Below, piece after piece: positions 1-21,841 of a stretch of 64,000 bases of DNA; positions within the stretch are counted from its first letter, which is position 1; each line of letters begins with the position of its first letter. Location of the stretch: contig CALASN010000164.1 of the NCBI GenBank assembly GCA_937888735.1, forward strand, positions 26,643 to 90,642, read 5' to 3'. The DNA is from an uncultured Bacillota bacterium. GTDB taxonomy: Bacteria; Bacillota; DTU084. A model generated the notes under the pieces. That model ran no database searches. It was given only the letters and a program-made list of their open reading frames with translations, and was not told the origin of the DNA. The translations under genes were made by a program, and so were the position numbers.

Positions 1-1190
1 GGACTAGCCGTTGCCTGAGGCCAGTCGCAGTACGGCTGCCGGATGTGCTGACAACAGCTAAAGTGGGTGATGTTTTAGGAATTAACGCGTTTCCCTATTT
101 TGCCTCCGGCGCCGCTCACAATCCTCGACCCGAGGAAGAAGAAAAAATCATGTTTCAGCGGCAGCTTGCTTGGGTCAAAGAGGCGAAGATCAAGTATAAC
201 CGCTGGTGGTTTTTCATCAGCGCAGGGGTTAAACCTTATCTTGACATCGGCGCTACCTTTATAACCTGGATGCAAACGGATCCTGAAAAAATCAAACAAG
301 CTAATAACCTTGGGATTTGGTTGTTTGCCAGCAGCAACGAACCTAATTTTTCCGGAATCTCCCCGCAGCAGTGCGTGGCCAAGCTGCAGGAATGTTATCA
401 GGCGATGAAGGCAGTAAATCCTAAAAACATCATGGCAGCTCCGGTTGTGGGCATCGATGCGGAAGACTGGCTGCGGCAATTCTATGAGGCCGGAGGGAAA
501 GAATACTTTGATGTTTGCGATTTTCACGTTTATCAACAGAAGAGTTTACCTGTGCCCCAGGGGTTGGCGCCCGGTTCTCCTGAAGGGGTTTTGCTGCAGT
601 TAGCCCGTCTTAAACAAATCATGGCAGAGTATGGAGATGAAGCCAAACCGATTATCATCACCGAGACGGGTTGTCCCACTTACAGCGGCTATGACTGGGC
701 TGTGGGAAGCACCCTCGAGATGCAGGCCAACTTTGTGGTTCGCGCTCATGTGCTCATGCTTGCCTCCGGCGTGCAGAGAATTTTTTGGTATGCGCTGCAG
801 GACGAAGGGACGGATCCGGACGAAATGGAAGAGAACTTTGGTTTGGTGGATTATGAAGGAAACCCTAAACCAGCATACTTTGCTTATCAAACCATGAGCC
901 GGCAGCTGGGCGAGACCATCTACCGCAGTCCCATAGCCGGCCTCGCCAATCCCAGCTATGGCTACAGTTTTGAAAAGCTCGGCGGCGGGTTTGTCAGCTG
1001 TCTATGGGACGCCCGAGGGCAGAGCACAGTAACGCTTCAGTTGGCAGACGGTCAGGTGGCGCTTGTGAGGCAGAACGGCGAGCGTCAAGTCTTGCCTAAT
1101 CCCACAGGGATCTTGACGCTCACTGTTTCCGAAGCTCCGCTTTATCTTCACTCCGCTCAACCGCTGAAGGTAATCAGCGTACGGCGGTAA
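1..1190 (+). CDS. 5'-truncated (window edge) clan GH-A TIM-barrel glycoside hydrolase (GH5-like). Third paralog of the 4101/7356 family, ending right after the catalytic region and lacking their ~370-aa C-terminal domain
   Basis: Reading frame is open from nt 3. The translation ...RPVAVRLPDVLTTAKVGDVLGINAFPY aligns with ...EPAAVRLPGVLAVEKVGDVFGVNAFPY of both paralogs. NEPNF and ITETGCPTY motifs are present. Confidence 0.75.
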   Translation, partial: TSRCLRPVAVRLPDVLTTAKVGDVLGINAFPYFASGAAHNPRPEEEEKIMFQRQLAWVKEAKIKYNRWWFFISAGVKPYLDIGATFITWMQTDPEKIKQANNLGIWLFASSNEPNFSGISPQQCVAKLQECYQAMKAVNPKNIMAAPVVGIDAEDWLRQFYEAGGKEYFDVCDFHVYQQKSLPVPQGLAPGSPEGVLLQLARLKQIMAEYGDEAKPIIITETGCPTYSGYDWAVGSTLEMQANFVVRAHVLMLASGVQRIFWYALQDEGTDPDEMEENFGLVDYEGNPKPAYFAYQTMSRQLGETIYRSPIAGLANPSYGYSFEKLGGGFVSCLWDARGQSTVTLQLADGQVALVRQNGERQVLPNPTGILTLTVSEAPLYLHSAQPLKVISVRR

Positions 1191-1224
1191 ATTGGCACTT
1201 TATCCAAAAGGGGGAGTTTGCGAA

Positions 1225-3999
1225 ATGAAGAAATTTGCGATTGCCTTTTTCCTTTGTCTTCTGGCCTTCAGCCTGGGTGCGGCGGCCGCAATTCAAATCA
1301 TTGATTTAACTTATAGTCTGCCGGATATTCCGGAACAAGATTCGGATATTATCTCTCAGGATCCAAATTTTAAAAAAATCAATGACGGAAAGATGCTCAC
1401 CGGCGGAGATACGGCTCTTTTCGGAGGCTGGAATTCCAGCAAAGCGATAATCATCGATGTGGATCTGCAAAGGCCGGTTGAGATTGCAAAAATCCAGATT
1501 TGGACCAGTGAATCCGAAACTAATCATCACATGAAAAGCTATAAAGTCTATACCAGCGCGGATCAGGTCTCTTACTCTTTAGTCCGCGAAGTGATCAATC
1601 CCGAACCAAAATTGACGGAAAAACCGGCAACGACGAAGTGTTATCCAAGCAGCGCGGAAAACTTGGGGGTTCGCTCCCGCTATCTGAGGATAGAAGCTTA
1701 TGGTGATCCTACCGCTTATCAGCAAATTATCCAGGAATTGGAGGTTTTCGGGCAAGAATTGCCATACTTGTCCGCAGCAGCGCAGGTAGCTTTGCCCAGA
1801 GCGGGTCAGGAGCTGGCAATCACAGCCAAGGCGATGCCCGGCGCCGCGCTCTCTTTGGCGATCGTGAATTCAGCCTCGGAAGTCGTGAAAAACCTGGGCG
1901 CCAGCTCGCTTGAGACCGTAAGCGTATCTTGGAACGGTAAGGATGAGGAGGGGAACTATGTTCCATCCGGCATGTACTATGCCCGCGGCACGTTCTCTCA
2001 GGGAAGCGACGTCACGGAGAAAAAGCTGCCGCTCTTCATTGATCTCACAGGGCCGCGCGATAGCGCAATAACGAACGTCGGCTATGTTTATCCCGAGGAT
2101 CCCCAGCAGGATAGCGAAGTCTTCTCTTCAGATCCGCAGTGTAATCAGCTTACAGACGGCGGCATCGGCTGGGGCGGTAATACTTCCATTAACAGCACTT
2201 GGAATGCCAAAGACAAGCGAATCATCATCGTCTTTGATCTGCAGCGGCTGCGCGAACTGCATGAAGTAAAGCTTTGGACCAACGAGTTTAACGCGGGAAC
2301 CAGGATCGGCGGCTATGAGCTGCTCGTCAGCGACGACGGCACAGATTTCGCGCCCGTGACAACTGTGTACAATCACGTACCTTATCGACTTGTTACACCC
2401 GTCAACACAGAGATTTTCTCCCTCGACGCCAAGCTGAGTGTAAGGGCTCGTTACGTGAAGATCGTCGCTTTTCCCAGCGGGCGGATCGGTAATTTTTTCA
2501 TTGACGAGGTGCAATTTTGGGGAGAGGCCCTGCCGCAGCTGGAACTTTTGCCAGACGCGATTTCTCCGGCTTTGGGACAAAAAGTGGCGATTGCCTATGA
2601 AGCGGCCGGCGCTGCCCAAATAGAAATTCTCAACGCGCAAGGAGAGATGGTCCGCTCGTTCAGTCCGGCTGCGGCCGGCGGGCTTATAAACTGGGATGGG
2701 AAAACAGAGGAAGGAACAATTCTCGCCGATGGCGCCTATACCGTACGGCTGGAGTCCTGCGAGCGGACAGTGACCTTGAAAAGTCAGGGCCCTGCCGCGC
2801 CAAATATTTCCTCGCCGGCGCTTCCCCTGGAAGGCATTTTGGAGCACAATCAGGACTTGCTGCTGCTCACAGGAAAAGCGGAGGAAGCGGCAACCATCAA
2901 AGTCTTCTCCGGAGCTGAGCAGAGCGAAATCGCTCAGGGACCCTGCCAGCTTTCAGGAGCTTTCAGCGTCAATGTTCCTTTGACAGAAGGCGATAATGAG
3001 CTCGAGGTTTGGGCCTTTGACGAGTTTGGCAACCCCAGCGCCGCAGGCTTGAGCTTCATCGTAAATTATGATCCCCGGCGTCCGTTTGGCATTCCCACCA
3101 TCGTCAATGGGGATTTGCTTTCGCCGGCAAATGCCGACGGTTACCTGGACCAGCTGGCAGTCTCTTTTTACCTGAGGCCTGCCGGTACCGCCTACCTGAA
3201 GGTTCGGGACCATGCCGGCAGTGAAGTGGCTCTGAAAGAGAAAGAGACGGCAGGCGAAGAAGAGATCGCTTTGCTTTGGGATGGCAGGCAAACTGAGTTT
3301 GTGGCGGATGGGATTTACACAGTTGAGGTTGGAGCGAGAGTCGGGGGAGAAGAGATTCGCTTTTTCACGCGAACTGTGAGGGTGGATAACGAGCCGCCGC
3401 AGGATCCAATTTTGCTATATCCGGCTGCAAATGCCGCACTCACCAAGCAAGGCTTGAAATTCAGCTGGGAAAAAGTGGCTGATGCGGCATATTATTTGTT
3501 TTACCTGGGGACGGAAGAGGATCTCCGCCCGCAGACTCCCATGGAGAGCAAGGCGGCTGAACTTGCGGTTAATCTGGAAGCTAAGGGAACTTATTATTGG
3601 CAGGTCAAGGCAGTGGATGAAGCGGGCAATATTTCGGCAGGAAGCGATGCTTCTTTTGTAGTTACAGATCTTGATACCAGCGCTTTCAACCTCAGCAATT
3701 TTGCCATGACTCCCAACCCGTTTACCCCTGGCACTGGCAGGAGAGAAAAGCTTGCCATCAGCTTCAGCCTGCAGCAGGAAGGAGAGGTAACGGTAACTAT
3801 TTATAACTTGGCAGGAAAGCTTGTGAAAAAGCTGCCCGCCGGATGGCTCCAAGCTGGAGATTATCTTTTCACTTGGGACGGCGCCGATGAGCGGGGCAAA
3901 GCGGCGCAAAAGGGCCCGTATCTTGTGAGAGTCACGGCGGCGAATCCTCTTTCCGGCCCTGTGGCTGCCATAACAAGGCCGGTGTTGCTGCTAAAGTAG
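1225..3999 (+). CDS. Secreted multidomain binding/scaffold protein with no catalytic domain. It has a signal peptide, two copies of the ~130-aa beta-sandwich module found at the N-terminus of the GH paralogs, and at least four FlgD-Ig-like modules (WDG...G.Y motif).
   Basis: Hydrophobic N-terminus (MKKFAIAFFLCLLAFSLGAAAA) with a GGGGGAG RBS 7 nt upstream of ATG 1225. The module recurs at aa ~25-160 and ~300-440 and is homologous to GH residues 30-170. FlgD-Ig-like motifs are VSWNGKDEEGNYVPSGMYY, INWDGKTEEGTILADGAYTV, LLWDGRQTEFVADGIYTV and FTWDGADERGKAAQKGPYLV. Confidence 0.7.
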   Translation: MKKFAIAFFLCLLAFSLGAAAAIQIIDLTYSLPDIPEQDSDIISQDPNFKKINDGKMLTGGDTALFGGWNSSKAIIIDVDLQRPVEIAKIQIWTSESETNHHMKSYKVYTSADQVSYSLVREVINPEPKLTEKPATTKCYPSSAENLGVRSRYLRIEAYGDPTAYQQIIQELEVFGQELPYLSAAAQVALPRAGQELAITAKAMPGAALSLAIVNSASEVVKNLGASSLETVSVSWNGKDEEGNYVPSGMYYARGTFSQGSDVTEKKLPLFIDLTGPRDSAITNVGYVYPEDPQQDSEVFSSDPQCNQLTDGGIGWGGNTSINSTWNAKDKRIIIVFDLQRLRELHEVKLWTNEFNAGTRIGGYELLVSDDGTDFAPVTTVYNHVPYRLVTPVNTEIFSLDAKLSVRARYVKIVAFPSGRIGNFFIDEVQFWGEALPQLELLPDAISPALGQKVAIAYEAAGAAQIEILNAQGEMVRSFSPAAAGGLINWDGKTEEGTILADGAYTVRLESCERTVTLKSQGPAAPNISSPALPLEGILEHNQDLLLLTGKAEEAATIKVFSGAEQSEIAQGPCQLSGAFSVNVPLTEGDNELEVWAFDEFGNPSAAGLSFIVNYDPRRPFGIPTIVNGDLLSPANADGYLDQLAVSFYLRPAGTAYLKVRDHAGSEVALKEKETAGEEEIALLWDGRQTEFVADGIYTVEVGARVGGEEIRFFTRTVRVDNEPPQDPILLYPAANAALTKQGLKFSWEKVADAAYYLFYLGTEEDLRPQTPMESKAAELAVNLEAKGTYYWQVKAVDEAGNISAGSDASFVVTDLDTSAFNLSNFAMTPNPFTPGTGRREKLAISFSLQQEGEVTVTIYNLAGKLVKKLPAGWLQAGDYLFTWDGADERGKAAQKGPYLVRVTAANPLSGPVAAITRPVLLLK

Positions 4000-4011
4000 A
4001 TTTATTGAGGC

Positions 4012-4040
4012 GCTGAGAGGGAGCCTTTTGCCTCTCAGCC
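4012..4040 (+). terminator. 9-bp perfect inverted repeat hairpin (GCTGAGAGG...CCTCTCAGC) after the 1225..3999 gene. There is no U-tract, so it may be an attenuator or processing hairpin.
   Basis: Inverted repeat read directly from the sequence. Confidence 0.3.
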
Positions 4041-4100
4041 CCCGCAACGGACAATGGCAGATTTGAAGCTGGGAATGTGAACGCGATGGGAGGTTGAAGG

Positions 4101-7100
4101 TTGGTGAAGCTAAAGAAAGTTTGTCTCTGGCTTTTGATTATAGCGGCGCTGTTTGCTTCCGCCGCCTTGGCGGAGAAAATCCAGGGAATCACTTACACTT
4201 ATCCTGACGAGCCGGGTCAAGATCGGGATATTCCAAACCAGGATCCGCTCCAGACAAAACTGGTCGACGGAATCATAGGCGGCGGAGGTGCCGGCGCAGT
4301 TTGGGGACAGTGGCAGGGGAATAAAGCCATTGTGCGCTTCGATTTGAAACGGAGATATAAGCTCTCTGCCATTGAGATCTGGACCAGTGAAGGGCTGGTA
4401 AACCAGCATCTAGGGCGGGTGGAAATCCTCTCCAGCACTGATGGCAGCGATTATCGCAGAGTCGGTACGCTCAGGAATCCTCAGGAACCGTTAAAGGAAA
4501 AACCTTTGCAGGATAATATTTATTCGTTCTGTGATAAAGATTTGAATTTTGAAGCCAGATACGTCAAACTTACGTTTTATCAGGATAACCTCACTGCCGG
4601 CATTTACCAGCAGGTAATCGAGGAAGTTTGCCTCTGGGGGGAGCCGCTTCCCTTCAGTTACGATTCCCAAATGCCGCCTGTCGAGTTTACTGCTGAGGTC
4701 AATACTTACTCTTCCGTGCGTTTGGAAATTGGCGATTATCTGCAGCGCAATCCCCAGGCTGCTGATTTGCGCGTTTTCGTTGCGGAAGAAGATTTTCGCG
4801 ATGTGGAAGGCAAGGAAGAGTACCGTCAGTGGTGGTATTTGAATGCTCAGAAGCAGACTGTGATCGTAAACGGCTTGACGCCCAATCACACGTATTATAT
4901 AGCGGCAGCTGGGGTGAGCGCGGGTGACAAGCAGCTGCGCTACCTGGAGCCTGCGGCCGTGAGGCTGCCCGGAGTGTTGGCTGTGGAGAAGGTAGGCGAT
5001 GTGTTCGGAGTCAACGCCTTTCCGTATATAGAAACAGGCGCCTCTCACCAGAGGCGAAGCCCTGAGGAAGAGCGAGAGATGTTTCAGCGGCAAATTAAAC
5101 TGGCGCAGGAAGCGGGAATCAAATATAACCGCTGGTGGCGCAATTACTCGTCGGGATTGCTCCCGTATGTCAACGCTGGGATCACCTTTTTGACCGGGCT
5201 GCAGGCTGACGAACAATATATCAGTCAGAGCAACAGCTACGGAACCTGGTTTTTTGAAGGAGGCAACGAGCCTAATTTTGCCGGCACTAAACCCGAGGAG
5301 TATGTGGCCATAATCAAAGAAGGATATAAGGCCATAAAAGCTGTCAACGCAGAAAACATCCTGGCAGCGCCGGTGGTCGGTCCTTCAGACTGGCTGCGGG
5401 AGTTTTATGAAGCCGGCGGAAAAGACTACTTCGATGTGATGGATACGCATCTCTACCCGGCAACGGCATCCCCCGTGCCTGAAGGCCTGCCCAAGGGCGC
5501 GCCGGAGGCGATCTTATTAGCTGTGCAAGAACTGAAAGAGATAATGGCTGATTATCATGATGCGGACAAACCCTTGATCATAACGGAAACGGGCTCTCCA
5601 ACATATACAGGCCGCAGCTGGGCAGTGAGAGGCCTGTCTCAGGAAGAACAGGCCCAAAATATCGTCCGGATTTATTTGCACCTAATCGCCGGTGGCTTCA
5701 AAAGAATATTTTTATATGCGCTGCAGGACGAGGGAACAGATCTCAACAATATGGAGCATAACTTTGGGATCGTAGATTACGAGGGAAAGCCAAAGCTGGC
5801 TTATTACGCATACCAGACCATGACCGGCCAGCTGGGAGAAACTCTCTTTGACGGCCCCTTGAATGGGACGGAAAATCCTTATTACGGCTATCAATTTAAA
5901 AAGTTAGCGCAAACCGGATATATTAGCTGCCTGTGGGATGCGGCCGGCAAAAGCGAGGCGCTCTTAAAGCTCGCCGCAGGAGAGGATGAGGTTATCGTCT
6001 ATGATTTGTTCGGGCACGGACGGGAACTGACGGCCGGCGAGCAACTGACGCTCACGATCTCGGAGAGCCCAATCTACATCCATACTAAAGCGCCGCTTGT
6101 GGTCCAGAGCGCCAAACGGCTGCCACCGCCGCCGACATTAAAGGTGGCGGCCTCCTTACCCAGCGATGTGTTGCTGGCAGGAGATAACTCAAGTTTAAAC
6201 GTGAGCTTGAACAGTACTTTACCCGGAACAGTTCGGGGCACGGTGTCGGTTGAAGGAGAGTTTCAAGCAAGCCCGAGAGATTTTGAAATTACGGACGAAG
6301 CTATCTTAGAGCTGCCGCTTATTTTGCCAAGAAACGCCGCGCCGGGTGTATACATGCTCACAATTAAAGTAGAACTGCCTAAACAAAAAGTTGGCAGCAC
6401 GAATGTGTCGGGAGTACAGGAATTAAAACTTAATTTTTGGCTAGCGTCTCCGTTAGGAGCTAAACCTACCATCTACAAACAGGATTTTACTGGGGACGGC
6501 AGCGAACAGATTCTGCTGACGAACGAAAAGTTGGAAGCCCTGATTGCGCCCGAATTCGGCGGCAGGCTGATTCTGCTGATCGATAAAGAATCCAAAACGA
6601 ATCAGCTCAATGCCGATCTGAAGGAATTCAGCACATCTTGTTCCGGGTCCGGCCTGGGTTTTTGGGATGCGCTTGGCACCTGGACTGCAGATTTGTGGCG
6701 GGCGAAATATGATTATCAGTTGGTAGACTCAGAACAGAACATTGGGGTGAGCATGCAGGCGACGGGACAATCAGGTGTGGTGGTGAGCAAACAGATCTTA
6801 TTGCCTGATTCCAGTGGATGCCTGAATTATAAACTCAAGTTTTTTAATCCCACAAATAGCGAGCTAACGATAAATTACACTACTCATCCGGAATTCACCC
6901 CCGGCGGCGTAGCTGATAGTTACTCGGATGTAATCTATTTACCCTCTAAAGCGGAAATCAGAAAATATCCGTATGTTTCCACCTTGGGAGATCGGGGTTC
7001 TGCAGAGGTAGACCAAGGCTGGTGGGCGATCACAGATCCCAAGGAAAAAGTAATGCTGGGGGCGGTCTTCGATGAGAAGAAGGTCGAAAGCATTAGACAA

Positions 7101-7250
7101 TGGTGGGGAGATGAGGCTTTTAATCTTGAACTGAGCCTCAAACCATTCCAGTTGGCGCCTAAAGAGGAATACGCGTTTGATACGCTATATTTCATAAAGC
7201 AAAGCGACGACTTTCAAGCCATTAAGGAAGAATGGCTCAAACGCAGATGA
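4101..7250 (+). CDS. Giant secreted multidomain glycoside hydrolase. Domain order: signal peptide, beta-sandwich (CBM-like) module, Fn3-like domain, clan GH-A TIM barrel (GH5-like, NEP acid/base and ITETG nucleophile motifs), and a ~370-aa C-terminal domain of unknown function.
   Basis: 1049-aa ORF with a TTG/GTG start and GGGAGG RBS. Motifs GGNEPNF and ITETGSPTY. Fn3-like GLTPNHTYYIA. About 70% identical to ORF 7356..10514. Confidence 0.85.
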   Translation: MVKLKKVCLWLLIIAALFASAALAEKIQGITYTYPDEPGQDRDIPNQDPLQTKLVDGIIGGGGAGAVWGQWQGNKAIVRFDLKRRYKLSAIEIWTSEGLVNQHLGRVEILSSTDGSDYRRVGTLRNPQEPLKEKPLQDNIYSFCDKDLNFEARYVKLTFYQDNLTAGIYQQVIEEVCLWGEPLPFSYDSQMPPVEFTAEVNTYSSVRLEIGDYLQRNPQAADLRVFVAEEDFRDVEGKEEYRQWWYLNAQKQTVIVNGLTPNHTYYIAAAGVSAGDKQLRYLEPAAVRLPGVLAVEKVGDVFGVNAFPYIETGASHQRRSPEEEREMFQRQIKLAQEAGIKYNRWWRNYSSGLLPYVNAGITFLTGLQADEQYISQSNSYGTWFFEGGNEPNFAGTKPEEYVAIIKEGYKAIKAVNAENILAAPVVGPSDWLREFYEAGGKDYFDVMDTHLYPATASPVPEGLPKGAPEAILLAVQELKEIMADYHDADKPLIITETGSPTYTGRSWAVRGLSQEEQAQNIVRIYLHLIAGGFKRIFLYALQDEGTDLNNMEHNFGIVDYEGKPKLAYYAYQTMTGQLGETLFDGPLNGTENPYYGYQFKKLAQTGYISCLWDAAGKSEALLKLAAGEDEVIVYDLFGHGRELTAGEQLTLTISESPIYIHTKAPLVVQSAKRLPPPPTLKVAASLPSDVLLAGDNSSLNVSLNSTLPGTVRGTVSVEGEFQASPRDFEITDEAILELPLILPRNAAPGVYMLTIKVELPKQKVGSTNVSGVQELKLNFWLASPLGAKPTIYKQDFTGDGSEQILLTNEKLEALIAPEFGGRLILLIDKESKTNQLNADLKEFSTSCSGSGLGFWDALGTWTADLWRAKYDYQLVDSEQNIGVSMQATGQSGVVVSKQILLPDSSGCLNYKLKFFNPTNSELTINYTTHPEFTPGGVADSYSDVIYLPSKAEIRKYPYVSTLGDRGSAEVDQGWWAITDPKEKVMLGAVFDEKKVESIRQWWGDEAFNLELSLKPFQLAPKEEYAFDTLYFIKQSDDFQAIKEEWLKRR

Positions 7251-7338
7251 TTCCCACTGGAGGAAAATTACGGCCTGCAAATCCGCCGCGTTCCGTGGGG
7301 ACTATTTGAAGTTGTTGCTCATTTTAACTTTACGAACG

Positions 7339-7368
7339 CGATGGGAGGTTGAAGGTTGGTGAAGCAAA
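7339..7368 (+). repeat. 30/30-nt direct duplicate of 4081..4110 (RBS plus start codon region of the tandem GH paralogs). Similarity extends about 40 nt upstream and into the signal-peptide codons.
   Basis: acgcgatgggaggttgaaggttggtgaagc occurs at both sites. Confidence 0.8.
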
Positions 7369-10300
7369 AGAAAGTTTGTTTTTGGTTTTTGATTATAATA
7401 GCAATGTTTGCTTCCGCCGCCTTGGCGGAGAAAATTCAGGGTATCTCCTACACTTATCCTGACGAGCCAGGCCAAGATTCGGATATTCCACACCAGGATC
7501 CTCTCCGGACAAAATTAACAGATGGAAACATCGGCGCAGGCGGCGGCAGCGCAGTTTGGGGACAGTGGCAGGGGAATAAAGCCATTGTGCGCTTTGATCT
7601 GAAACGGAAATACAATCTCTCTGCCATTGAGATTTGGACCCGCGAAGATTCAAAAGACCAACATCTCGGACGGGTGGAAATCCTCTCCAGCACAAATGGC
7701 AGCGATTATCGCAGGGTCCGTACGCTCAGGAATCCCCGGGAACCGTTAAAGGAAAAACCCTTGAAGCCTAATATTTATTCGTTCGGGGCTCAGGACTTGA
7801 ATGTTGAGGCCAGATACCTAAAACTTACGTTTTATCAGGATAACCTCACTGCCGGCATTTATCAGCAGGTGATTGAGGAAGTTTACCTCTGGGGGGAACC
7901 GCTTCCTTTCGGTTACGATCAAAAAATGCCGCCGGTTGAGTTTACAGCCAAAGTAAATACTTACTCTTCCGTGCGTTTGGAAATTGGCGATTACCTGCAG
8001 CGTAATCCCCGGGCAGCTGATTTGCGCGTTTTCGTTGCGGAAGAAGATTTTCGCGATGCGGAAGGCAAGGAAGAGTACCGTCAGTGGTGGTATTTGGACG
8101 ATCGGAAGCAGACTGTAATCGTAAACGGCTTGACGCCCAATCACACGTATTACATAGCTGCGGCCGGTTTGAGCGCGGATGACAAGCAGCTGCGCTACCT
8201 GGAGCCTGCGGCCGTGAGGCTGCCCGGAGTATTGGCTGTGGAGAAGGTAGGCGATGTGTTCGGAGTCAACGCCTTTCCGTATATAGAAACAGGCTCCTCT
8301 CACCAGATGCGAAGCCCTGAGGCGGAGCGGGAAATGTTTCAACTGCAAGTTGAATTGGCTCAGGAAGCGGGGATCAAATATAACCGCTGGTGGCGTAATT
8401 ACCCGTCAGGCCTTATCCCTTACGTCAATGCGGGCGTCACTTACCAAGTCTTTCTGCCCCAAGACGCGAAGTCAGTCAAAGATACTAACGACTATGGTTC
8501 CTGGCTCTTTGGCGCTGGCAATGAAACAAATCTCAGCGGCACGCAGCCGACAGACTATGTGAAAAGCCTCAAGGAAGGCTATCAGATGATGAAAGCTGTG
8601 AGCCCAGAGAATATGCTGGCGGCGCCGGTGATTCATAGCATTCAGGCCGCGGATTGGCTGCGAGGCTTTTACCAGGCCGGAGGTAAGGACTATTTCGACG
8701 TGATGGATATTCACATTTACCAACAATCCGCCTTACCTGTACCCGAAGGGCTGCCGCAAGGCTCGCCTGAAGGAATGCTGCTGCAAGTGGCGGAGCTGAA
8801 GAAAATTATGAAAGAGTACGGCGACCAGGCGAAGCCGCTCATTACCACAGAGACCGGTTGTCCCACTTATACGGGACGCAGTTGGGCAGTCCGGGGTACC
8901 ACCCAAGAGCAGCAGGCGAACAATATCGTCAGGATGCATTTGCATCTCATCGCCAGCGGCTTCCGCAGGATTTTCTGGTATGCGTTTCAAGATGAAGGAA
9001 CAGATTTGAACAATATGGAGCATAACTTCGGCGTCATTGATTATCACGGCAAGCCAAAGCTAGCTTATTATGCGTACAAAACCATGCTCCGCCAACTGGG
9101 GGAAACGCTCTACCACAGCAGCCTGAAAGGCGCGGAGAATCCCTATTACGGTTATTCGTTCAAGAAGCTGAATGGCGAGGGATATATCTCTTGCCTGTGG
9201 GACGCGGCAGGCAAAAGCGAAGCGATCCTGAAGCTCGCCGCAGAAGAGGGTAAGGTTATCGTCTCTGATCTGTTCGGGAGCGGGAGGGAGCTGACAGCCG
9301 GCGAGCAACTGACGCTTACGATCTCTGAAAGTCCTATTTACATCCATACCAAAGCGCCCATTGTTGTCCTGAGCGCCAAGAGGCTGCCGCCGCCGCCTTC
9401 TTTGAATGTTTCGGCTTCCTTGCCCGATGATATTATGCTGGCCGGAGAAGACAGCGGCTTGAGCGTGAGATTCAACAGCACTTTACCTGGGACTGTTTCT
9501 GGCAATGTATCTGTTGAAGGCCCGTTCCCAGTAGAACAGCGGAAATTTGCCGTGACAGACGAAACGATCTTGGCGCTGCCGCTTGTTTTGCCTAAGAGCG
9601 CCGCGCCGGGCCTATACGCGCTCAAAATCAAAGTGGAGCTTCCCAAACAGAAAGTGGGCGGCATGAATGTGTCGGGGGTACAGGAGCTAAAGCTCAATTT
9701 TTGGTTGGCCGCTCCGGCAGACGCTAAACCTGCCGTTTACAAACGGGATTTCACAGGAGACGGCAGCGAACAGATCCTGCTGACAAACGAAAAGTGGGAA
9801 ATTTTGCTCGCGCCGGAATTCGGAGGCAGACTTATTTTATTAATTGATAAAGCCTCCAAAACCAATCAGTTAAATGCGGACTTCGCTGATTTCAGCAAAG
9901 CGTGCACAGGCGCAGGTTTGGGACTGTGGGATGCGCTCGGCTCTTTTACCGCAGATTTATGGAATGGGAAATACGAATATAACGTTATCGAATCTGAACG
10001 GCAAATAGGCATTAACCTGCAGGCAACGGGCAAATCTGGAGTCCGCGTGAATAAACAGCTTATTTTGCCAAGCTCAGAGGATTATTTCGCTTATAAGGTG
10101 AATTTTACTAATCCCACGGGCCGGCAGCTGACGGTGAATTATAGCACCCATCCCGAATTTACGCCCGGCGGAACTGCGGACAGCACCAGGGATTCTCTTC
10201 AGCTTCCGACGCAGGGAGGAATTAAGAACTTCCCTTACGTTTCCGCGCTGGGAGAGAGAGGCTCTTTGGAACTGACTGAAGGATGGTATGCAATTGCGGA

Positions 10301-10514
10301 CTCAAAGCAGAAGGTTATGTTGGGCGCCGTCTTTGAGGGGAACAAAGTTAAGAGCGCTCGTCAGTGGTGGGGAGATGAGGCTTTCAATCTTGAGCTCACT
10401 CTCAAACCGTTCCAGTTGGCCCCGGGTGAAGCATACGAGTTTGATACTTTATATTTCATCAAGAGAAGCGATGACTTTCAGACGATCAGAGACGAATGGT
10501 TAAAACGTAAGTGA
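7356..10514 (+). CDS. Giant secreted multidomain glycoside hydrolase, tandem paralog of 4101..7250 with the same domain order.
   Basis: 1052-aa ORF. GAGNETNLSG replaces GGNEPNF (the E is retained). ITETGCPTY nucleophile motif. Same C-terminal domain beginning LPPPPSL. Confidence 0.85.
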   Translation: MVKQKKVCFWFLIIIAMFASAALAEKIQGISYTYPDEPGQDSDIPHQDPLRTKLTDGNIGAGGGSAVWGQWQGNKAIVRFDLKRKYNLSAIEIWTREDSKDQHLGRVEILSSTNGSDYRRVRTLRNPREPLKEKPLKPNIYSFGAQDLNVEARYLKLTFYQDNLTAGIYQQVIEEVYLWGEPLPFGYDQKMPPVEFTAKVNTYSSVRLEIGDYLQRNPRAADLRVFVAEEDFRDAEGKEEYRQWWYLDDRKQTVIVNGLTPNHTYYIAAAGLSADDKQLRYLEPAAVRLPGVLAVEKVGDVFGVNAFPYIETGSSHQMRSPEAEREMFQLQVELAQEAGIKYNRWWRNYPSGLIPYVNAGVTYQVFLPQDAKSVKDTNDYGSWLFGAGNETNLSGTQPTDYVKSLKEGYQMMKAVSPENMLAAPVIHSIQAADWLRGFYQAGGKDYFDVMDIHIYQQSALPVPEGLPQGSPEGMLLQVAELKKIMKEYGDQAKPLITTETGCPTYTGRSWAVRGTTQEQQANNIVRMHLHLIASGFRRIFWYAFQDEGTDLNNMEHNFGVIDYHGKPKLAYYAYKTMLRQLGETLYHSSLKGAENPYYGYSFKKLNGEGYISCLWDAAGKSEAILKLAAEEGKVIVSDLFGSGRELTAGEQLTLTISESPIYIHTKAPIVVLSAKRLPPPPSLNVSASLPDDIMLAGEDSGLSVRFNSTLPGTVSGNVSVEGPFPVEQRKFAVTDETILALPLVLPKSAAPGLYALKIKVELPKQKVGGMNVSGVQELKLNFWLAAPADAKPAVYKRDFTGDGSEQILLTNEKWEILLAPEFGGRLILLIDKASKTNQLNADFADFSKACTGAGLGLWDALGSFTADLWNGKYEYNVIESERQIGINLQATGKSGVRVNKQLILPSSEDYFAYKVNFTNPTGRQLTVNYSTHPEFTPGGTADSTRDSLQLPTQGGIKNFPYVSALGERGSLELTEGWYAIADSKQKVMLGAVFEGNKVKSARQWWGDEAFNLELTLKPFQLAPGEAYEFDTLYFIKRSDDFQTIRDEWLKRK

Positions 10515-10568
10515 GCGCTGTGGAGGATTTTGATTGGAGAGAGAAAAATAACAACGAGGTGAGGAAGC

Positions 10569-11933
10569 ATGAAAAAAGTTGTCTGGATAGCGTTGGCGGT
10601 GATCGCTGCAGCGGGGATCTATTTTGGCGCCAGAAAACAGGTGGCTGAAGAGGAACCCAGCAAAGCTGGCAAGAAGGTAGTGGTGGTAATAAATAACGGC
10701 CCCAAAGAGACTAACAAAGCGGAGGTCAAAAAACTGAAGGATACCATCGCTCGCTTCAATAAGGTTTATCCTGAGATTGAAATCCGCTGGACTGATCGCA
10801 GCTATTCCCCGGATAGCTTCGCCACCAGCATGGCCGGAGGCACGGCCGAGGACGTATCCAGCGTTTTTGCCACGGAAAGCTATATAGCCGATCGCGGTTA
10901 CGCTCTGGATCTGACGGAACTGATCAATAACTGGGAGTACAAAGAGCAACTGAATCCCAGGATGCTGCAGCCTTTTACCAAACAAGGCCGTTATTATGGC
11001 TTTCCCGAAACAGGCTATATTATGGCGCTGGCGTACAACAAAAGATTGTTTCGCGAAGCCGGGATTGAAAATCCGCCGCAGACTTGGGAGGAATTTGTTG
11101 CAGCAGCCAAAAAGCTCACCGACCGCAAAACCGGCTGCTCCGGCTTCGGAATCATGGGACGAAGCAACTTTGCGGGTTGGGGTTTGCTGAATTGGGTCTG
11201 GCAAGCAGGAGGCGATTTTGAAAAAGAGCGCAACGGCAAGTGGAAGGCGGTTTTCGCAGAACCGGAAGCGGTGCGCGCGGTGGACTTCGTGAGGTCTTTG
11301 CGCTGGGAGCACGATGTTCTGCAGAGAAACTTGCTGGTTGGCGTGGAAGAGTTGATGCAGAGCTTCGCCGCAGGCCAGCTGGGCATGATGCTCGTCACCA
11401 GCACGACCTATAATATTCCCCTAATGGTCAATCAATATAAAATGAAGCTTGAGGACGTCGGGCTTGCCATGCTGCCCGCCGGGCCAGCGGGCAGAGCAAA
11501 TCAGCTGGGCGGCAGCTTTGCCGTGATCAATCCCACCAGCCCGAAAGAAGTCCAGGAAGCGGCATTTAAATGGATCGCCTGGCGGGCGCTGCAAGGATAT
11601 GATCCCCGGCAGATTCAGAATCTGGCGGACTTGAATCGTAAACAGGGCTTGGTCACAGGCACTTCCTCTGTTCCCATCATGGTAGGCGAAATCGCGAAAA
11701 AAGCAGACGAGGTAATCGATAAAAATCGCGATGTGTTCGTGGTCTTCGATGATGCGGTGGAAGCTTCCAAGTATATTCACCTTGAGCCGCCGTTTTTCTG
11801 CCAGCAGCTGTACTCAGAGTACCTTGGCCCTGTGATTGAGGCTGTCTTAACTAATAAAAACGCCGCTCCCAAACAGAGCTTGGCTAAAGCGGCAGCTAAT
11901 TTTGAAAGCAGATTTTTGGCGCAAGTTAAATGA
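10569..11933 (+). CDS. Extracellular solute-binding protein (ABC transporter family-1 sugar-binding protein). It is membrane-anchored by an N-terminal TM helix and has no lipobox Cys.
   Basis: 454 aa. N-terminus MKKVVWIALAVIAAAGIYFG. Length and composition are typical of a sugar-binding protein. AGGAGG-like RBS (gaggtgagga). Confidence 0.75.
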   Translation: MKKVVWIALAVIAAAGIYFGARKQVAEEEPSKAGKKVVVVINNGPKETNKAEVKKLKDTIARFNKVYPEIEIRWTDRSYSPDSFATSMAGGTAEDVSSVFATESYIADRGYALDLTELINNWEYKEQLNPRMLQPFTKQGRYYGFPETGYIMALAYNKRLFREAGIENPPQTWEEFVAAAKKLTDRKTGCSGFGIMGRSNFAGWGLLNWVWQAGGDFEKERNGKWKAVFAEPEAVRAVDFVRSLRWEHDVLQRNLLVGVEELMQSFAAGQLGMMLVTSTTYNIPLMVNQYKMKLEDVGLAMLPAGPAGRANQLGGSFAVINPTSPKEVQEAAFKWIAWRALQGYDPRQIQNLADLNRKQGLVTGTSSVPIMVGEIAKKADEVIDKNRDVFVVFDDAVEASKYIHLEPPFFCQQLYSEYLGPVIEAVLTNKNAAPKQSLAKAAANFESRFLAQVK

Positions 11934-11991
11934 GATGCGTAGAGGCAGGTTGAGAGCAGCATAAAGATAAAAAGCAAGGAGAGAATCTTAG

Positions 11992-12969
11992 ATGAATAAG
12001 AACATTTTAGTTGGAGACGCGATTCCTAACATGCCGTGGGAAGACAGACCCAAGGATTCCCAGGAGATTATCTGGCGTTCCCGCAGGAACCCAATTATCC
12101 CCAGAGATCTTATTCTCTCGGCCAACAGCATTTTCAACAGCGCGGTTGTGCCTTTCCAAGGCCGGTTTGCCGGCGTCTTTCGCTGCGATGACAAAGCGCG
12201 GGACATGAACCTGCACAAAGGCTTCAGCGAAGACGGCGTCAAGTGGAGGCTGTCCGAAGAGGCCATCTCCTTCAACTGCGAAGCTCCGGAGATCAAATAT
12301 ACCCACGGCTATGATCCCAGGGCTGTTTTCATTGAAGACCGGTATTATATTACCTGGTGCAACGTTTACTGCGGCCAGCCCACCGTCGGCGTGGGCTATA
12401 CTTTCGACTTTGAAGAGTTCCATCAGCTGGAGAACGCCTTTTTGCCGTTTAACCGCAACGGGGTCTTGTTCCCCCGCAGGATCAACGGCGCCTACGCGAT
12501 GCTCAGCCGCCCCAGCGACAGCGGGCATACGCCTTTCGGAGATATTTTTTATAGCCAAAGCCCGGACATGATCCACTGGGGGCATCACAGATTGGTGATG
12601 CGTCCCACAGAAGGCTGGCAGAGCACCAAGATCGGGGCGGGCCCGATTCCAATCGAAACCGCCGAAGGTTGGCTTTTGCTCTACCACGGAGTGCTGACCT
12701 CCTGCAATGGTTTCGTCTACAGCTTTGGCGTAGCCCTTTTAGATTTGGAAGAACCTTGGCGGGTGCTGCACAGGTCCAAGCAATACCTGCTTTCACCGCA
12801 AGCGCTCTACGAGTGCGTGGGCGACGTGCCGAATGTTGTTTTTCCGTGCGCCGCGCTGTGCGACGCGGACAGCGGCAGGATCGCGATTTACTATGGCGCT
12901 GCGGACACGGTGACAGCGCTGGCTTTCACCACGGCTGATGCGCTTTTAGACTTTGCAAAGAGCAAATAG
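11992..12969 (+). CDS. GH130-family glycoside phosphorylase/glycosidase (DUF377 5-bladed beta-propeller), cytoplasmic.
   Basis: 325 aa with no signal peptide. The N-terminal pattern [37 protein letters not shown] matches the GH130 hallmark NPI...FN.AVV...G.F.GVFR. Confidence 0.65.
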
Positions 12970-13019
12970 CCGAGGGCGCAGAAAGCGCTATTAAAGTGAG
13001 ATTTGCAGAGAGCTTCCGA

Positions 13020-14213
13020 CTAAAAAGCCGCGGAAGCTCTCTTCTTTTTTGCGGTGGAGCTCCAAAGCCATAAGAGAAAAGTCAGCGTCAAGACAGCTAA
13101 AGAGCTGCTCCAAAAGGTAGCGCTCAAGCCCCACCGGTCCGCAGCCGCGCCTGCCAGGAGAGGCGCCACAAGCCCTCCCAGGTTGATTACCGCCTGCTCG
13201 ATGCCATAGGCCCGGCCGCGAAACTCCTCGGGCACGTCCCGGGCGATCATGGAGGCGGCGGAGGGAGTGACTGCTGCCAGGAAAAAGCCGTAGCTGAGAT
13301 ACATCACGGAGAATTTCCCAATTGTGTTCATGAACGCTGAGAACAGCAAAAAAAGCGAGGAGCCGCAAAGCCCCCAAAAGGCAACCCCGGCGTATGATTT
13401 TCGCTCGGCCAGCCTGTTCCAGGGATAAGCGCTGAGCACAAAGGCCAGCCCGGGCAGGGAGAAGACTACCCCCGCCAGCCACGGCGGGCCCTGGGGACTC
13501 AGTTTGGCAAGGTGCAGGGTGAGCAGAGGCTGCACTGCCAAAGAAATTGCGGTGCCCAAGAACACCAGCCCTAAGGCTAAGAGCAAGACAGGTTGTTTTC
13601 CAGCCAGGCAGAGATCTTCCCAGAGGCTGGTTTCTTTGCCGGCCACAGGTTTTTGGCGCTCTTCCACCAGAAAAATCACCAAGATAGTTGACAGCAGTAC
13701 GGAAAGGCCGGAGACGCGCATGGCGCCGCGATAACCGAACTGCGCGGCTAATAAGCCTCCCATGGCCGGGCCGGCGATGGTGCCTGCGGCGTTGGCGGTC
13801 TGGACGATGGAGACAAATCTCCCTGCCAAAACCGGAGGGGTGTTGGTTGCCACCAGCGCGATCGCTCCAGGCACAAAGCCGGTGAGGACTCCATTGAGGA
13901 AGCGGGTCACAGCGACCTGCCAGGGTGCCTGACACAGGCTCATGGCAAAATAAATAGCAGTAAGGCAGAAGCCGGCTCGCACAACCATCGGTTTGCGGCC
14001 TTTGCTGTCGCCGATTTTCCCCCAAAACGGCTGCATGATAATGGCGGCGCCATAGTTCAGCGCAAAGACAAAGCTGGACCACGCGGCCACCTGAGCGCCG
14101 ACCCCAAGTTCCCGCAAAAACTGGGGCATGAAGGGAATTACTTGGTTCCAACTGCTTGACGCCAAAAAGTTGGTCAAAGACAGGACAAACAGATTTTTTT
14201 GGTAATAATTCAT
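13020..14213 (-). CDS. MFS transporter (12-TM, YttB/multidrug-like fold), possibly an oligosaccharide or sugar permease for this locus.
   Basis: 397-aa hydrophobic protein starting MNYYQKNLFVLSLTNFLASSSWNQVIPFMPQF. The MFS loop motif G.IGDSKGRKP is present. Confidence 0.8.
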   Translation of the reverse strand: MNYYQKNLFVLSLTNFLASSSWNQVIPFMPQFLRELGVGAQVAAWSSFVFALNYGAAIIMQPFWGKIGDSKGRKPMVVRAGFCLTAIYFAMSLCQAPWQVAVTRFLNGVLTGFVPGAIALVATNTPPVLAGRFVSIVQTANAAGTIAGPAMGGLLAAQFGYRGAMRVSGLSVLLSTILVIFLVEERQKPVAGKETSLWEDLCLAGKQPVLLLALGLVFLGTAISLAVQPLLTLHLAKLSPQGPPWLAGVVFSLPGLAFVLSAYPWNRLAERKSYAGVAFWGLCGSSLFLLFSAFMNTIGKFSVMYLSYGFFLAAVTPSAASMIARDVPEEFRGRAYGIEQAVINLGGLVAPLLAGAAADRWGLSATFWSSSLAVLTLTFLLWLWSSTAKKKRASAAF

Positions 14214-14262
14214 TTTTTCACCTTAATTGCTAAATCTCCTTCCAGAGCAAAAGGGGAAGAGC

Positions 14263-15249
14263 TCAGCCTCCCGAAGATTCTCTGATGATCAATTTGGTGG
14301 GAGCGAGAATCTTTAAGGGTTCGGAGTCGCTTTGTAAAAGCGCCAGGAGCCTTTGCGCGCCGAGGGCGCCGATCAGCCGTTTGGGAACGCAGACTGTGGA
14401 CAGCGGCGGCTGGCTGTGCGCGGAAAAAGGGCTCTCTCCGAACCCGATGATCGCCAGATCCGCGGGGATCCTTTTGCCCATGGCCTGGGCTTGGCGCATG
14501 GCGCCTAGAGCCATTATGTCGTCGCCGACGAAAACCGCGCTGAGAGCAGGATTTCGTTCTAAAAGTTTCGCTATTTGCGAGGCGCCGCCTTCGGTTGTGA
14601 AATCTCCCTCTGCGCAGAGCGAAGGCTCAAACGCCAGTCCGCCTTCCGATAAAGCTTGGCGATACCCGGCCAGTTTTGCCGCGCTGGTATGGGTACGGGA
14701 CCAACCGTTGACGAACCCTATTTTCCTGTGACCCAGCTCTAAAAGATGCCGGGAGGCCCAATAGGCGCCTTTCTGATTATCTGCCAACACGCAGTTCAAA
14801 TCTAAGGTGGGGTGTTCGGTATAAAGGAGGACTAAAGGAAGCTTCTGGCAGACTAGTTTCTCCACCAGCCGGTCCGAGATGGAGCCGCCGATGACCAGGA
14901 GTCTCTCGATGTTGCCCTCTTCCACCATGGGAGGCGCCTGCGCGTTCAGCCCATCGATGATGTGGAAGTTCAGCTGGTAATTCTGCTTTGAGACAACCTC
15001 CTGAATGGCTGAGATTGCTTCCGCAGTGTAATAGCTGCCGCCCCGTTCTTGGGGAGGGGCGTAATAGATTACGCCCAGCTGTCCCGAAACCAAACTGCGC
15101 TGCTTCTGAAAGTATCCCAGCTCTTTGGCGGCGGCTAAGATTCGTTTCCGGGTAGAGGCGCTCACTCTCCCTTTTTTGTGCAGCACGTTAGAGACCGTGG
15201 TGATGGAAACGCCGGTCGCTTTGCTGATCTCCCGCATTCCTACAGGCAT
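14263..15249 (-). CDS. LacI-family transcriptional regulator.
   Basis: N-terminal HTH MREISKATGVSITTVSNVLH plus a periplasmic-binding-fold sugar-binding domain. 328 aa. Confidence 0.85.
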   Translation of the reverse strand: MPVGMREISKATGVSITTVSNVLHKKGRVSASTRKRILAAAKELGYFQKQRSLVSGQLGVIYYAPPQERGGSYYTAEAISAIQEVVSKQNYQLNFHIIDGLNAQAPPMVEEGNIERLLVIGGSISDRLVEKLVCQKLPLVLLYTEHPTLDLNCVLADNQKGAYWASRHLLELGHRKIGFVNGWSRTHTSAAKLAGYRQALSEGGLAFEPSLCAEGDFTTEGGASQIAKLLERNPALSAVFVGDDIMALGAMRQAQAMGKRIPADLAIIGFGESPFSAHSQPPLSTVCVPKRLIGALGAQRLLALLQSDSEPLKILAPTKLIIRESSGG

Positions 15250-15421
15250 TTTTCTCGCTCCTCAAATAGACTGCTTCCATAATAAACCTTTTCGCCGCTT
15301 TTTGTCAACCAGATTTAAGCGAAGGAAACAAGGGGAAGCAGCTTTAATTTTGCTTAAATGTGATTGACTATTAAATCATATCGTGCTATATTTAAAGCAA
15401 ATCGCTGGCAAAGGGAGGATG

Positions 15422-17829: not shown

Positions 17830-17841
17830 GGAGCGAAAAAA

Positions 17842-19284
17842 ATGTTAGAACGAATTGAGATTTCTAAAGGCAGAATCGGCTATTTTCACCTGGGCCACCA
17901 GCCATACTGGCAGCAATTTCCGGAACTGAAAGCGCAGCTCGAGCTGTACGCCTCTCAGTTTAAAGAGAAGCTCATGGCCTTCGGCCAAGCTGAAATCATC
18001 GACGGCGGGCTTGTGGATACAGCCCAAAGAGCCCGGGAGGTGGGAGATTATTTCCGGGCCCAGGGCGTTGATCTGCTTCTGTGTTACGTGACCACCTACG
18101 CTACCTCCGCCGTGCTGCTTCCTGTGGTGCAACGCTCTGGCGCCGATGTGGTGCTCCTGGGACTGCAGCCGAACTCCCGCATGGATTGTACGGTCTCCAC
18201 CACGTTCGATCAACTCTGCCACGATAACGTCACCAGCCTCCCGGAACTGTGCTGCGCGCTTCTGCGAGCCGGGATCAAACCTTTGGACGTCTTGGTGGGC
18301 GCGGCCCAGGGAGACGCCAGAGTGGAGCGGGAGCTATCCCAGTGGCTGGACGCGGCAACAGTGAAGAGAAACGTGACAGACGCCAGGCTCGGCCTTTTGG
18401 GTCACGTTTATGAGGGAATGCTTGATATGCACTCCGATCCCACCATGTTTCACGGCGCCTGGGGCGCGCACATTCAAATGCTGGAGATGTGCGATCTCGA
18501 GGAAGCGGTCTGTGGCGTCGCAGCCTCCGAGGTCGCAGCAAAGCTCGCTGAAATAAAAGAGGAGTTTGTGTTGGCCCAGCCCAGCCACGACCCAATCGCG
18601 GGGCTCATCTCGCCGGAGGATTTGGACTGGTCCGCGCGGGTAGCTTGCGCTTTAGAAAAATTAATCGGCGCCTACAAGCTGGATGGGATGGCCTATTATT
18701 ATAAAGGAAAGGGAGAGTATGAAAAGCTGATTTCCGGGATGATCATCGGCAGCTCGCTGCTCACAGGCAGGGGAATACCCATGGCCGGGGAACTGGATCT
18801 GAAGACATGCCTCGCCATGCTGATCATGGATCGGCTTGGGTGCGGCGGCTCTTTCTGCGAATTGCATCCTGTGGATTTCGACGACGATATAGTGCTGGTA
18901 GGGCACGACGGACCTGCCCATATCAGGATCAGCGACGCCAAACCTGTGATCCGAAAACTGAAACTCTTCCACGGTAAGCGAGGCTCGGGTCTCTCAGTGG
19001 AATTCAAAGTCCGCACCGGCCCTGTGACCCTTCTGGGACTCACCCAGACCGCCGGCGGCGACTTCAAATTTGTGGCTGCAAAAGGCGAATCGCTCAAAGG
19101 AGAAATTCCTCGCTCCGGCAATACCAACACCCGGGTGCGTTTTGCCACGGGCGTGGCAGAGTTTATCGAAAAATGGTCGCTGGCAGGTCCAACCCACCAT
19201 TTCGCGCTGGGAGCGGGGGATAAGCTCTCCGCTTTGCAAAAGGCGGCGCAAGTTTTGAAAACTGAGTTGGTTGTTGTCTCCTAG
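17842..19284 (+). CDS. L-arabinose isomerase / L-fucose isomerase family protein (AraA-like sugar isomerase).
   Basis: 480 aa. The C-terminal WSLAGPTHHFALGAG resembles AraA WILAGGAHHTCFS. GHDGPAHIRI resembles the AraA metal-binding His region. Confidence 0.6.
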   Translation: MLERIEISKGRIGYFHLGHQPYWQQFPELKAQLELYASQFKEKLMAFGQAEIIDGGLVDTAQRAREVGDYFRAQGVDLLLCYVTTYATSAVLLPVVQRSGADVVLLGLQPNSRMDCTVSTTFDQLCHDNVTSLPELCCALLRAGIKPLDVLVGAAQGDARVERELSQWLDAATVKRNVTDARLGLLGHVYEGMLDMHSDPTMFHGAWGAHIQMLEMCDLEEAVCGVAASEVAAKLAEIKEEFVLAQPSHDPIAGLISPEDLDWSARVACALEKLIGAYKLDGMAYYYKGKGEYEKLISGMIIGSSLLTGRGIPMAGELDLKTCLAMLIMDRLGCGGSFCELHPVDFDDDIVLVGHDGPAHIRISDAKPVIRKLKLFHGKRGSGLSVEFKVRTGPVTLLGLTQTAGGDFKFVAAKGESLKGEIPRSGNTNTRVRFATGVAEFIEKWSLAGPTHHFALGAGDKLSALQKAAQVLKTELVVVS

Positions 19285-19356
19285 CAACCTCCCAAGCCTA
19301 AGCCGGTGGCAAGCTGGCCGCTTTTATGCTAAGATAAGCGGAGAGGTGATTTTGCT

Positions 19357-21822: not shown

Positions 21823-21841
21823 GAAAAAGGAGCTGAGCAGG

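Follow-up and report, generated by a model that had tools for sequence, protein, structure and literature searches.

A tandem pair of predicted GH39-like hydrolase genes sharing a highly similar 5' tract in an uncultured Clostridia-class bacterium

We analysed a window of 64,000 nucleotides (nt) from an uncultured Bacillota bacterium (GTDB lineage DTU084; assembly GCA_937888735.1, contig CALASN010000164.1, positions 26,643 to 90,642 of the forward strand), which begins with genes for very large predicted glycoside hydrolases (GH). Two complete genes stand in tandem on the plus strand. The first, long1 (4101..7250, taken from the list of open reading frames, ORFs), encodes 1049 amino acids (aa) from a TTG start. 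The second, long2 (7356..10514), encodes 1052 aa, also from TTG, with the same domain order. The 3' part of a third GH39-like gene, here called the short form, occupies 1..1190 on the same strand, its 5' end lying beyond the window edge. BLASTP aligned the long1 and long2 proteins over their full length with 784 of 1052 residues identical (75%) and one 3-residue gap, and the nucleotide identity over aligned codons was 75.5%. The preliminary description of this DNA had given about 70% over about 1050 aa; the full-length similarity stood, and the measured figure was higher. The short-form fragment (3..1187) matched residues 280-673/676 of the long proteins, with 54% identity to long1 and 55% to long2. 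It ended at the position of residue 673/676, without the last ~375 aa. No additional paralog was found elsewhere in the 64-kb window.

The long1 and long2 genes share an exact 32-mer, GAACGCGATGGGAGGTTGAAGGTTGGTGAAGC, at 4079-4110 and 7334-7365, where an identical segment of 30 nt had been reported. This segment, which spans the ribosome-binding site (RBS) and the start, contains GGGAGG, a TTG/GTG start and the first codons, with GGGAGG spaced 7 nt from TTG and 10 nt from the in-frame GTG. A search of the window with up to 3 mismatches returned only these two sites, with 0 expected by chance, and the shuffled sequence gave zero matches at the same tolerance. A low-complexity coincidence is therefore excluded, and we rejected a chance match. 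The similarity had also been said to extend about 40 nt upstream, which we did not find convincing. The leader common to both genes upstream of TTG is only 22 nt long, and farther upstream we found only a 12-mer with 10 of 12 positions matching, displaced by a 12-nt indel. Public gene calls start long1 at GTG 4104 (P0001, 1048 aa) and long2 at Met17 (P0002, 1036 aa), the latter cutting off the signal peptide. From the RBS and the homology with long1, we favour TTG 7356 or GTG 7359 as the predicted start of long2. Promoter and terminator scans over positions 1-12200 stayed at chance level, and the intergenic leaders folded no better than shuffles (z -0.7 to -0.8); we therefore put forward no regulatory RNA.

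The divergence between long1 and long2 was mosaic along the genes. BLASTN returned one block of ~1.1 kb with 88% identity (4079..5180 and 7334..8434, both on the plus strand) that begins exactly at the 32-mer. This tract runs from -22 to about +1052 nt, to about codon 350, and covers the 22-nt leader with the RBS, the start, the signal peptide, a carbohydrate-binding module of the CBM32 type, a fibronectin type III (Fn3) domain and the first barrel strands. In 50-codon windows the nucleotide identity lay between 80 and 96% as far as codon ~325 and dropped to 55-71% over codons 350-520, and the identity at third positions dropped with it from 0.72-0.94 to 0.22-0.47. A further scan of third positions gave 0.70-0.93 up to codon 330 and 0.23-0.57 over codons 361-600, which is the level seen between species. 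The maximum chi-square breakpoint fell 1052 nt after the start, with a score reached by 0 of 200 shuffles.

We estimated synonymous (dS) and nonsynonymous (dN) divergence and the proportion of synonymous differences (pS) by the Nei-Gojobori method, and included the long genes of two further species, designated B and C. In codons 2-330 the two paralogs differed with a dS of 0.35 and a dN of 0.076. In codons 331-1049 the dS was ~2.3 (pS 0.715, saturated) and the dN 0.209. Over this 2.1-kb non-tract part, dS to both species was saturated. The dN to the species-B ortholog was 0.207 for long1 and 0.204 for long2, so the paralogs differ from each other as much as from the ortholog, and the dN of either copy to species C was 0.24-0.25. 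Outside the tract dN/dS was ~0.09. Amino-acid sites informative in the quartet joined long1 and long2 as sisters by 27:2:2 in codons 1-350 and split 13:9:11 in codons 351-1049, a star-like pattern. At the protein level the catalytic and C-terminal segments of the paralogs were 68-72% identical to each other. Against the orthologs of B and C, the paralogs were 66-72% identical over the catalytic segment, and the range for the immunoglobulin (Ig)-like and C-terminal segments was 55-70%. Within the tract, divergence between species was high (pS 0.74-0.83, dN 0.17-0.24), and the 32-mer was not conserved upstream of the species B and C orthologs. The tract is therefore not intrinsically slow-evolving. 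The GC content and the GC content at third codon positions (GC3) were equal in long1 and long2.

Two further patches, at codons ~601-660 and ~751-810 (window 5900-6080 and 6350-6530), had a third-position identity of 0.60-0.70 against 0.27-0.57 between species, and may be older or shorter conversion tracts. Codons ~361-420 (5181-5360 and 8436-8615), which lie beside the acid/base motif, were only 37-50% identical in aa between the paralogs and 53-63% identical to the species-B ortholog, making them a candidate site of specificity divergence. The catalytic segment of long2 was closer to species B and C (dN 0.177 and 0.196) than that of long1 (0.204 and 0.237), so that long1 looks like the faster-evolving copy.

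The gene junctions were spanned by three independent public assemblies from different sources with 99.7-100% identity. ENA contig k119_155393 (L004) matched window 1-7864 and covered the gene upstream of long1 (mid), long1 and the start of long2. JGI Ga0134855_005667 (L002) matched 6139-12424 and covered the end of long1, long2 and the sugar-binding protein gene that follows. Contig DIPB01000123.1 (L001) of the NCBI metagenome-assembled genome (MAG) GCA_002426275.1 matched 5118-19896 in pieces and covered long1, long2 and the downstream genes. The tandem arrangement is therefore real. Public contigs stop or fragment in or beside the 1.1-kb tract (the end of L004 at window 7864, positions 1-2400 of L001, the start of L002 at window 6139), because short-read assemblies break at a paralogous repeat of 88% identity. 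Only a 383-aa fragment call of long1 remains in MAG GCA_002426275.1.

The ENA contig extends past the left edge of the window by 4 kb and holds the complete short gene (L004:2722-5205), which encodes 827 aa (P0007). The order in P0007 is a signal peptide, two CBM32-like modules, an Fn3-like domain, the barrel and a beta-sandwich, without the C-terminal extension; relative to the long forms it has one extra N-terminal CBM32. The short forms of all three species measured 826-829 aa and kept their gene position. Between species they were 66-73% identical in the Fn3 and catalytic segments and 53-59% in the CBM32 segment, and they were 38-57% identical to the long forms, with a dN of 0.39. Many distant proteins found by HMMER also end at profile position ~670. 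The preliminary description had read the short copy as a product of domain loss or gain within one locus. The conserved architecture and position in three species and the dN of 0.39 rule out a local truncation, and the comparison of sequences marks the short form as a paralog in its own right, much older and distinct in architecture.

In long1 the predicted modules are a signal peptide (residues 1-24), a CBM32-like module (nt 4176-4655), an Fn3-like domain (4668-4970), a GH39-like barrel (4983-5840), a beta-sandwich (5841-6125), an Ig-like domain (6126-6470) and a domain of the galactose-mutarotase fold (6471-7247). Numbered from TTG, the putative acid/base residue is Glu390 (5268-5270) and the putative nucleophile Glu496 (5586-5588). 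In long2 the corresponding motifs are NETN (8520-8531, with Glu390 at 8523-8525) and TETG (8847-8858, with Glu499 at 8850-8852), and in the short form NEPN (336-347) and TETG (660-671). The acid/base motif of long1 reads NEPN, and the nucleophile motif is TETG in all three window proteins. A Sec-type signal peptide, read from the sequence, starts all three hydrolases and the mid protein.

Pfam matches to the hydrolases were weak: an N-terminal F5/8 type C domain, sub-threshold GH5, GH39 and Glyco_hydro_cc matches in the middle of the proteins and a faint AmyA-gluTrfs_C match at residues ~795-837. NCBIfam gave no match for the hydrolases. PF11790 (Glyco_hydro_cc, cut-off 21) was exceeded only in the short form, where the window fragment scored 36.3 bits and P0007 34 bits. 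PF00754 scored 28.7 bits in long2 against a cut-off of 28.2 and 24.0 bits, below the cut-off, in long1, and it matched 22 of the 27 sequences in a full-length alignment of relatives. Among 5.8 billion clustered proteins only 7 close proteins were found, and word-indexed searches with long1, with the C-terminal alignment and with an alignment including Verrucomicrobia and Lentisphaerae relatives brought back little beyond the locus itself. When 1.84 billion representatives were searched exhaustively with HMMER, 8689 proteins reached E<=1e-3 and 115 reached E<=1e-30. Among them, about 25 relatives were full-length (~1050 aa), matched from residue ~50 to ~1035 and were 23-30% identical; the nearest full-length relatives of the clade, at this identity, include MAGs of Verrucomicrobia and Lentisphaerae. 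The clade is phylogenetically isolated within Clostridia.

A profile of the 7 close homologues matched the GH39 structure 5jvk (E 2e-10) and PslG. The 27-sequence full-length profile matched 5jvk (1.9e-19), PslG (2.9e-10) and additional beta-xylosidase structures of GH39 (3e-10 to 9e-5), but GH128 only at 1e-5. The same profile matched CBM32 structures (4lpl, 4lks, 2j7m and 2jd9, 1e-6 to 5e-3) over residues ~60-200 and fibronectin type III domains over ~213-315. The structure 5jvk is GH39wh2 of Bacteroides cellulosilyticus (PMC6933502). Its WNEPNY aligns with the acid/base motif and its VTEIGW, like STEWGW of PslG, with the nucleophile motif, and the alignment continues through the 5jvk beta-sandwich. 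The Glu of NEP, the Glu of TE(T/F)G and a His-x-Tyr after strand 6 were invariant in all 27 sequences, and long1 and long2 each keep all 23 residues that are invariant across the 27 full-length relatives, both catalytic Glu included. In the AlphaFold2 (AF2) model of full-length long1, strands and helices alternate over ~300-580 and the chain is all-beta over 580-672, at a predicted local distance difference test (pLDDT) of only 30-70 in these parts. Judged by profile and motif, the catalytic module is a distant GH39-like member of clan GH-A whose Pfam GH39 score is sub-threshold. The C-terminal domain is a supersandwich superposable on mutarotases, which places it in the galactose mutarotase-like fold. 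It carries an invariant His-Pro(-Glu) in THPEF (6882-6896 in long1, 10146-10160 in long2), a near-invariant Glu (FNLE) and conserved Asn, Gln, Gly and Trp, which suggests a conserved putative binding pocket.

Between the short and long genes lies the mid gene (1192..3999, plus strand), a 935-aa ORF with a likely start at ATG 1225; it holds this place in 3 of 3 species. The mid protein is secreted and has two CBM32-like modules, four FlgD-Ig repeats and Big domains, with no catalytic domain. Its CBM32-like modules are 33-38% identical to the hydrolase N-termini. It also gave weak matches resembling the tail of type IX secretion system (T9SS) substrates, in a genome of the Clostridia class. With the mid gene counted, the four genes of the cluster carry six CBM32 modules between them. 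Downstream of long2 lies a gene for an ATP-binding cassette (ABC) transporter sugar-binding protein (SBP_bac_1; 10569..11933, plus strand). In all three species the hydrolase cluster is found together with such a binding protein and permeases.

The species B loci were L005, L006, L007 and L087, and its genome is that of Clostridia bacterium DTU084, a MAG from a biogas reactor (PMC4736482). For species C the locus was L003 of a Logan assembly. Both species repeat the gene order short, mid, long, and both clusters adjoin an ABC sugar-binding protein and two permeases. In species B there is one long gene with the permeases directly after it, and a metagenome scan for relatives returned only species B again. 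Since B and C each have a single long gene, the pair, correctly described at the outset as tandem paralogs of a multidomain clan GH-A hydrolase, is specific to the lineage of the window. We interpret the locus as a glycan-utilisation cluster, conserved across the three species, in an uncultured bacterium of the Clostridia class.

Farther downstream the window encodes a GH130 mannoside-phosphorylase-like protein (11992-12969), a major facilitator superfamily (MFS) transporter (13020-14213, minus strand), a LacI regulator (14263-15249, minus strand), a 779-aa ORF with no Pfam or NCBIfam match (15490-17829) and a GH42 beta-galactosidase (21809-23902); a DUF5107-TPR protein also belongs to the downstream set. 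The neighbours within the window (GH130, MFS, LacI and GH42) point to no clear substrate. At L004 915-2681 there is an ORF of ~575-588 aa without a Pfam or NCBIfam match, whose counterparts of 589-591 aa lie beside the cluster in species B and C. Both this ORF and the 779-aa one fall within the carbohydrate-utilisation region. A Verrucomicrobia relative (L008) has LacI, an MFS transporter and a heparinase II/III-like gene near its long-form gene, a setting that does not pinpoint the substrate. Unrelated to the hydrolases, a fused IspH (LytB) protein with four S1 domains (711 aa) is encoded at 52392-54527.

These results are probably best explained by an old, lineage-specific tandem duplication followed by a gene conversion of ~1.1 kb at the 5' end. 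The tandem duplication of the long gene would be old, about as deep in divergence as the separation from the closest species known, and both copies would have stayed functional under purifying selection. Non-reciprocal recombination, in one event or several, would later have overwritten ~1.1 kb of one paralog with the sequence of its neighbour, between a point 22 nt before the start codon and about codon 350. Gene conversion would account for the near-identity of the RBS, start, signal peptide, CBM32 and Fn3, and it would have left the barrel loops and the Ig-like and mutarotase-fold domains as different as orthologs of different species. The identity of 32 nt at the RBS would then mark the left edge of the conversion tract, and would be no fossil of a recent duplication.

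Several points weigh against this reading. Saturation of the synonymous sites outside the tract leaves the duplication undatable, and the star-like quartet would also fit a duplication that closely followed the separation from species B. Close orthologs come from three species only, and the absence of a second long gene in species C covers the 225 nt after the stop codon, where the contig ends. A younger duplication with replacement of the 3' two-thirds predicts the identical pattern. As for the enzymes themselves, PF01229 (GH39) scored 17.5 bits in long1 against a cut-off of 26, gave no match at E<=0.1 in long2 and matched 3 of 27 relatives at E<=0.01. The AF2 model, built from 7 sequences, was poor overall (pLDDT 57.8), and we infer the divergence in specificity of long1 and long2 from their sequences.

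An alternative that we regard as unlikely is that the duplication was younger (dS ~0.35) and that the 3' two-thirds of one copy were then replaced from a divergent lineage, or that a second long gene was acquired horizontally and its 5' part then converted. Either course yields the same mosaic, the relationship of long1, long2 and species B is star-like, and an isolated clade with relatives in Verrucomicrobia and Lentisphaerae MAGs is compatible with gene mobility. However, no donor-like sequence was found in the 5.8 billion clustered proteins, the 1.84 billion representatives, the GTDB genomes or the JGI metagenomes. The two copies also have the same GC and GC3, and the weaker secondary patches at codons ~601-660 and ~751-810 are easier to reconcile with repeated conversion between resident paralogs.

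The account given in the preliminary description was a recent tandem duplication of the whole gene, with the initiation region co-duplicated and ordinary divergence afterwards. The genes are indeed direct neighbours in the same orientation, they align collinearly from end to end, they have the exact RBS/start segment in common, and species B and C have one long gene only. However, such a history predicts a uniform dS, and we observed 0.35 over 330 codons against a saturated ~2.3 over 719, with an abrupt breakpoint between them. Outside the tract the copies are as far from each other as from the orthologs. With dS saturated beyond codon ~350, dN (0.209) at the ortholog level and the quartet at 13:9:11, the duplication does not appear recent. 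The RBS identity, taken there as a relic of co-duplication, is the edge of an 88% identical tract with a dS of 0.35, and its 32-mer is not conserved in B and C. We consider this history improbable.

Selection at the nucleotide level is more improbable still as the source of the 5' similarity. Constraints of mRNA structure, regulation or codon use for secretion could be invoked, as nucleotide-level constraints are known at RBS and signal-peptide regions and the tract includes both. However, the tract is saturated between species (pS 0.74-0.83), the leader 32-mer is not conserved in the orthologs, the folding of the intergenic leaders is ordinary (z -0.7 to -0.8), and 1.1 kb far exceeds an initiation region. 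An assembly chimera that placed the alleles of a single gene from two strains head to tail might be suspected from the contig breaks within or near the repeated tract (L004 ending at 7864, L001 fragmented over long1), but it is hardly credible, and we rejected it, since three independent assemblies from different sources bridge the junctions and the copies differ by 25% in protein, far above strain variation.

Because both copies keep all invariant residues, with a dN/dS of ~0.09 outside the tract, long1 and long2 are presumably both active. Both would be Sec-secreted retaining glycosidases in which Glu390 serves as acid/base and Glu496/499 as nucleophile. With a common targeting module but diverged substrate or sub-site specificity, they would supply oligosaccharides to the ABC transporter encoded next to them.

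Among characterised proteins the GH39 enzymes GH39wh2 (5JVK), PslG and XynB come closest. With GH39wh2, the best solved relative of the catalytic module, the alignment takes in the acid/base motif NEP, the nucleophile motif T-E-x-G and the beta-sandwich after the barrel. However, only ~285 profile residues align, at low similarity and with the N-terminal half of the barrel unaligned. In contrast to GH39wh2, the window proteins carry CBM32 and Fn3 at the N-terminus, and the long form also has an Ig-like and a mutarotase-fold domain. The Pseudomonas aeruginosa enzyme PslG (PDB 4ZN2/5BX9), a secreted or periplasmic GH39 endo-glycosidase for the Psl exopolysaccharide that acts on the polymer and not on a small xyloside, resembles the window proteins in the nucleophile strand and the helices that follow ('listEfGys' against 'IWSTEWGWS'). 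Only ~90 residues align, however, and PslG has two domains in 442 aa, without CBM32, Fn3 or a mutarotase-like domain. The PslG gene lies in an exopolysaccharide synthesis operon, whereas the window hydrolases lie beside an ABC importer.

The top Foldseek matches of the full-length long1 model in the PDB were LacZ/GH2 chains (E ~1e-10, template modelling score, TM, 0.13). The long proteins share with E. coli LacZ and other GH2 beta-galactosidases, which are five-domain enzymes of clan GH-A, the order of domain types, namely jelly roll, Ig, barrel, Ig and mutarotase-like. However, the TM is only 0.13 on a low-confidence model, and the profile of the barrel matches GH39 and more weakly GH128, but never GH2. 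As far as the model goes, the LacZ resemblance is one of layout and indicates no GH2 membership. The mutarotase-fold type of domain occurs in GH2, GH57, GH65 and GH94 enzymes.

Partial gene conversion and concerted evolution of tandem bacterial paralogs are known, for example in tufA/tufB of Salmonella. As there, the pattern in the window is that of recombination between resident paralogs, with a sharp-edged block of low dS in diverged genes. Unlike tufA/tufB, the tract is limited to the leader and the N-terminal modules, and gives mosaicism at the level of modules with no homogenisation of the whole gene. The conversion process is thus well known, the anatomy of the locus falls within known kinds, and current understanding is unchallenged. 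A bolder reading, to which we give little weight, is that the three Clostridia species and the ~25 distant full-length relatives form an undescribed GH39-derived family with a LacZ-like layout. In that family the mutarotase-fold domain, with its invariant His-Pro-Glu, might take part in catalysis or substrate capture, and selection might confine conversion to CBM32/Fn3, delivering two specificities to the same glycan.

An identical RBS is no proof of a recent duplication, and the pair long1 and long2 corrects an inference that is easily drawn from sequence alone. The locus offers a clean example of how a glycan-degrading cluster diversifies, in which catalytic and accessory modules drift while recombination keeps the leader, the signal peptide and the CBM alike. 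The hydrolases represent a rare, uncharacterised GH39-like clade from anaerobic-digester bacteria, which may be of interest for enzyme discovery.

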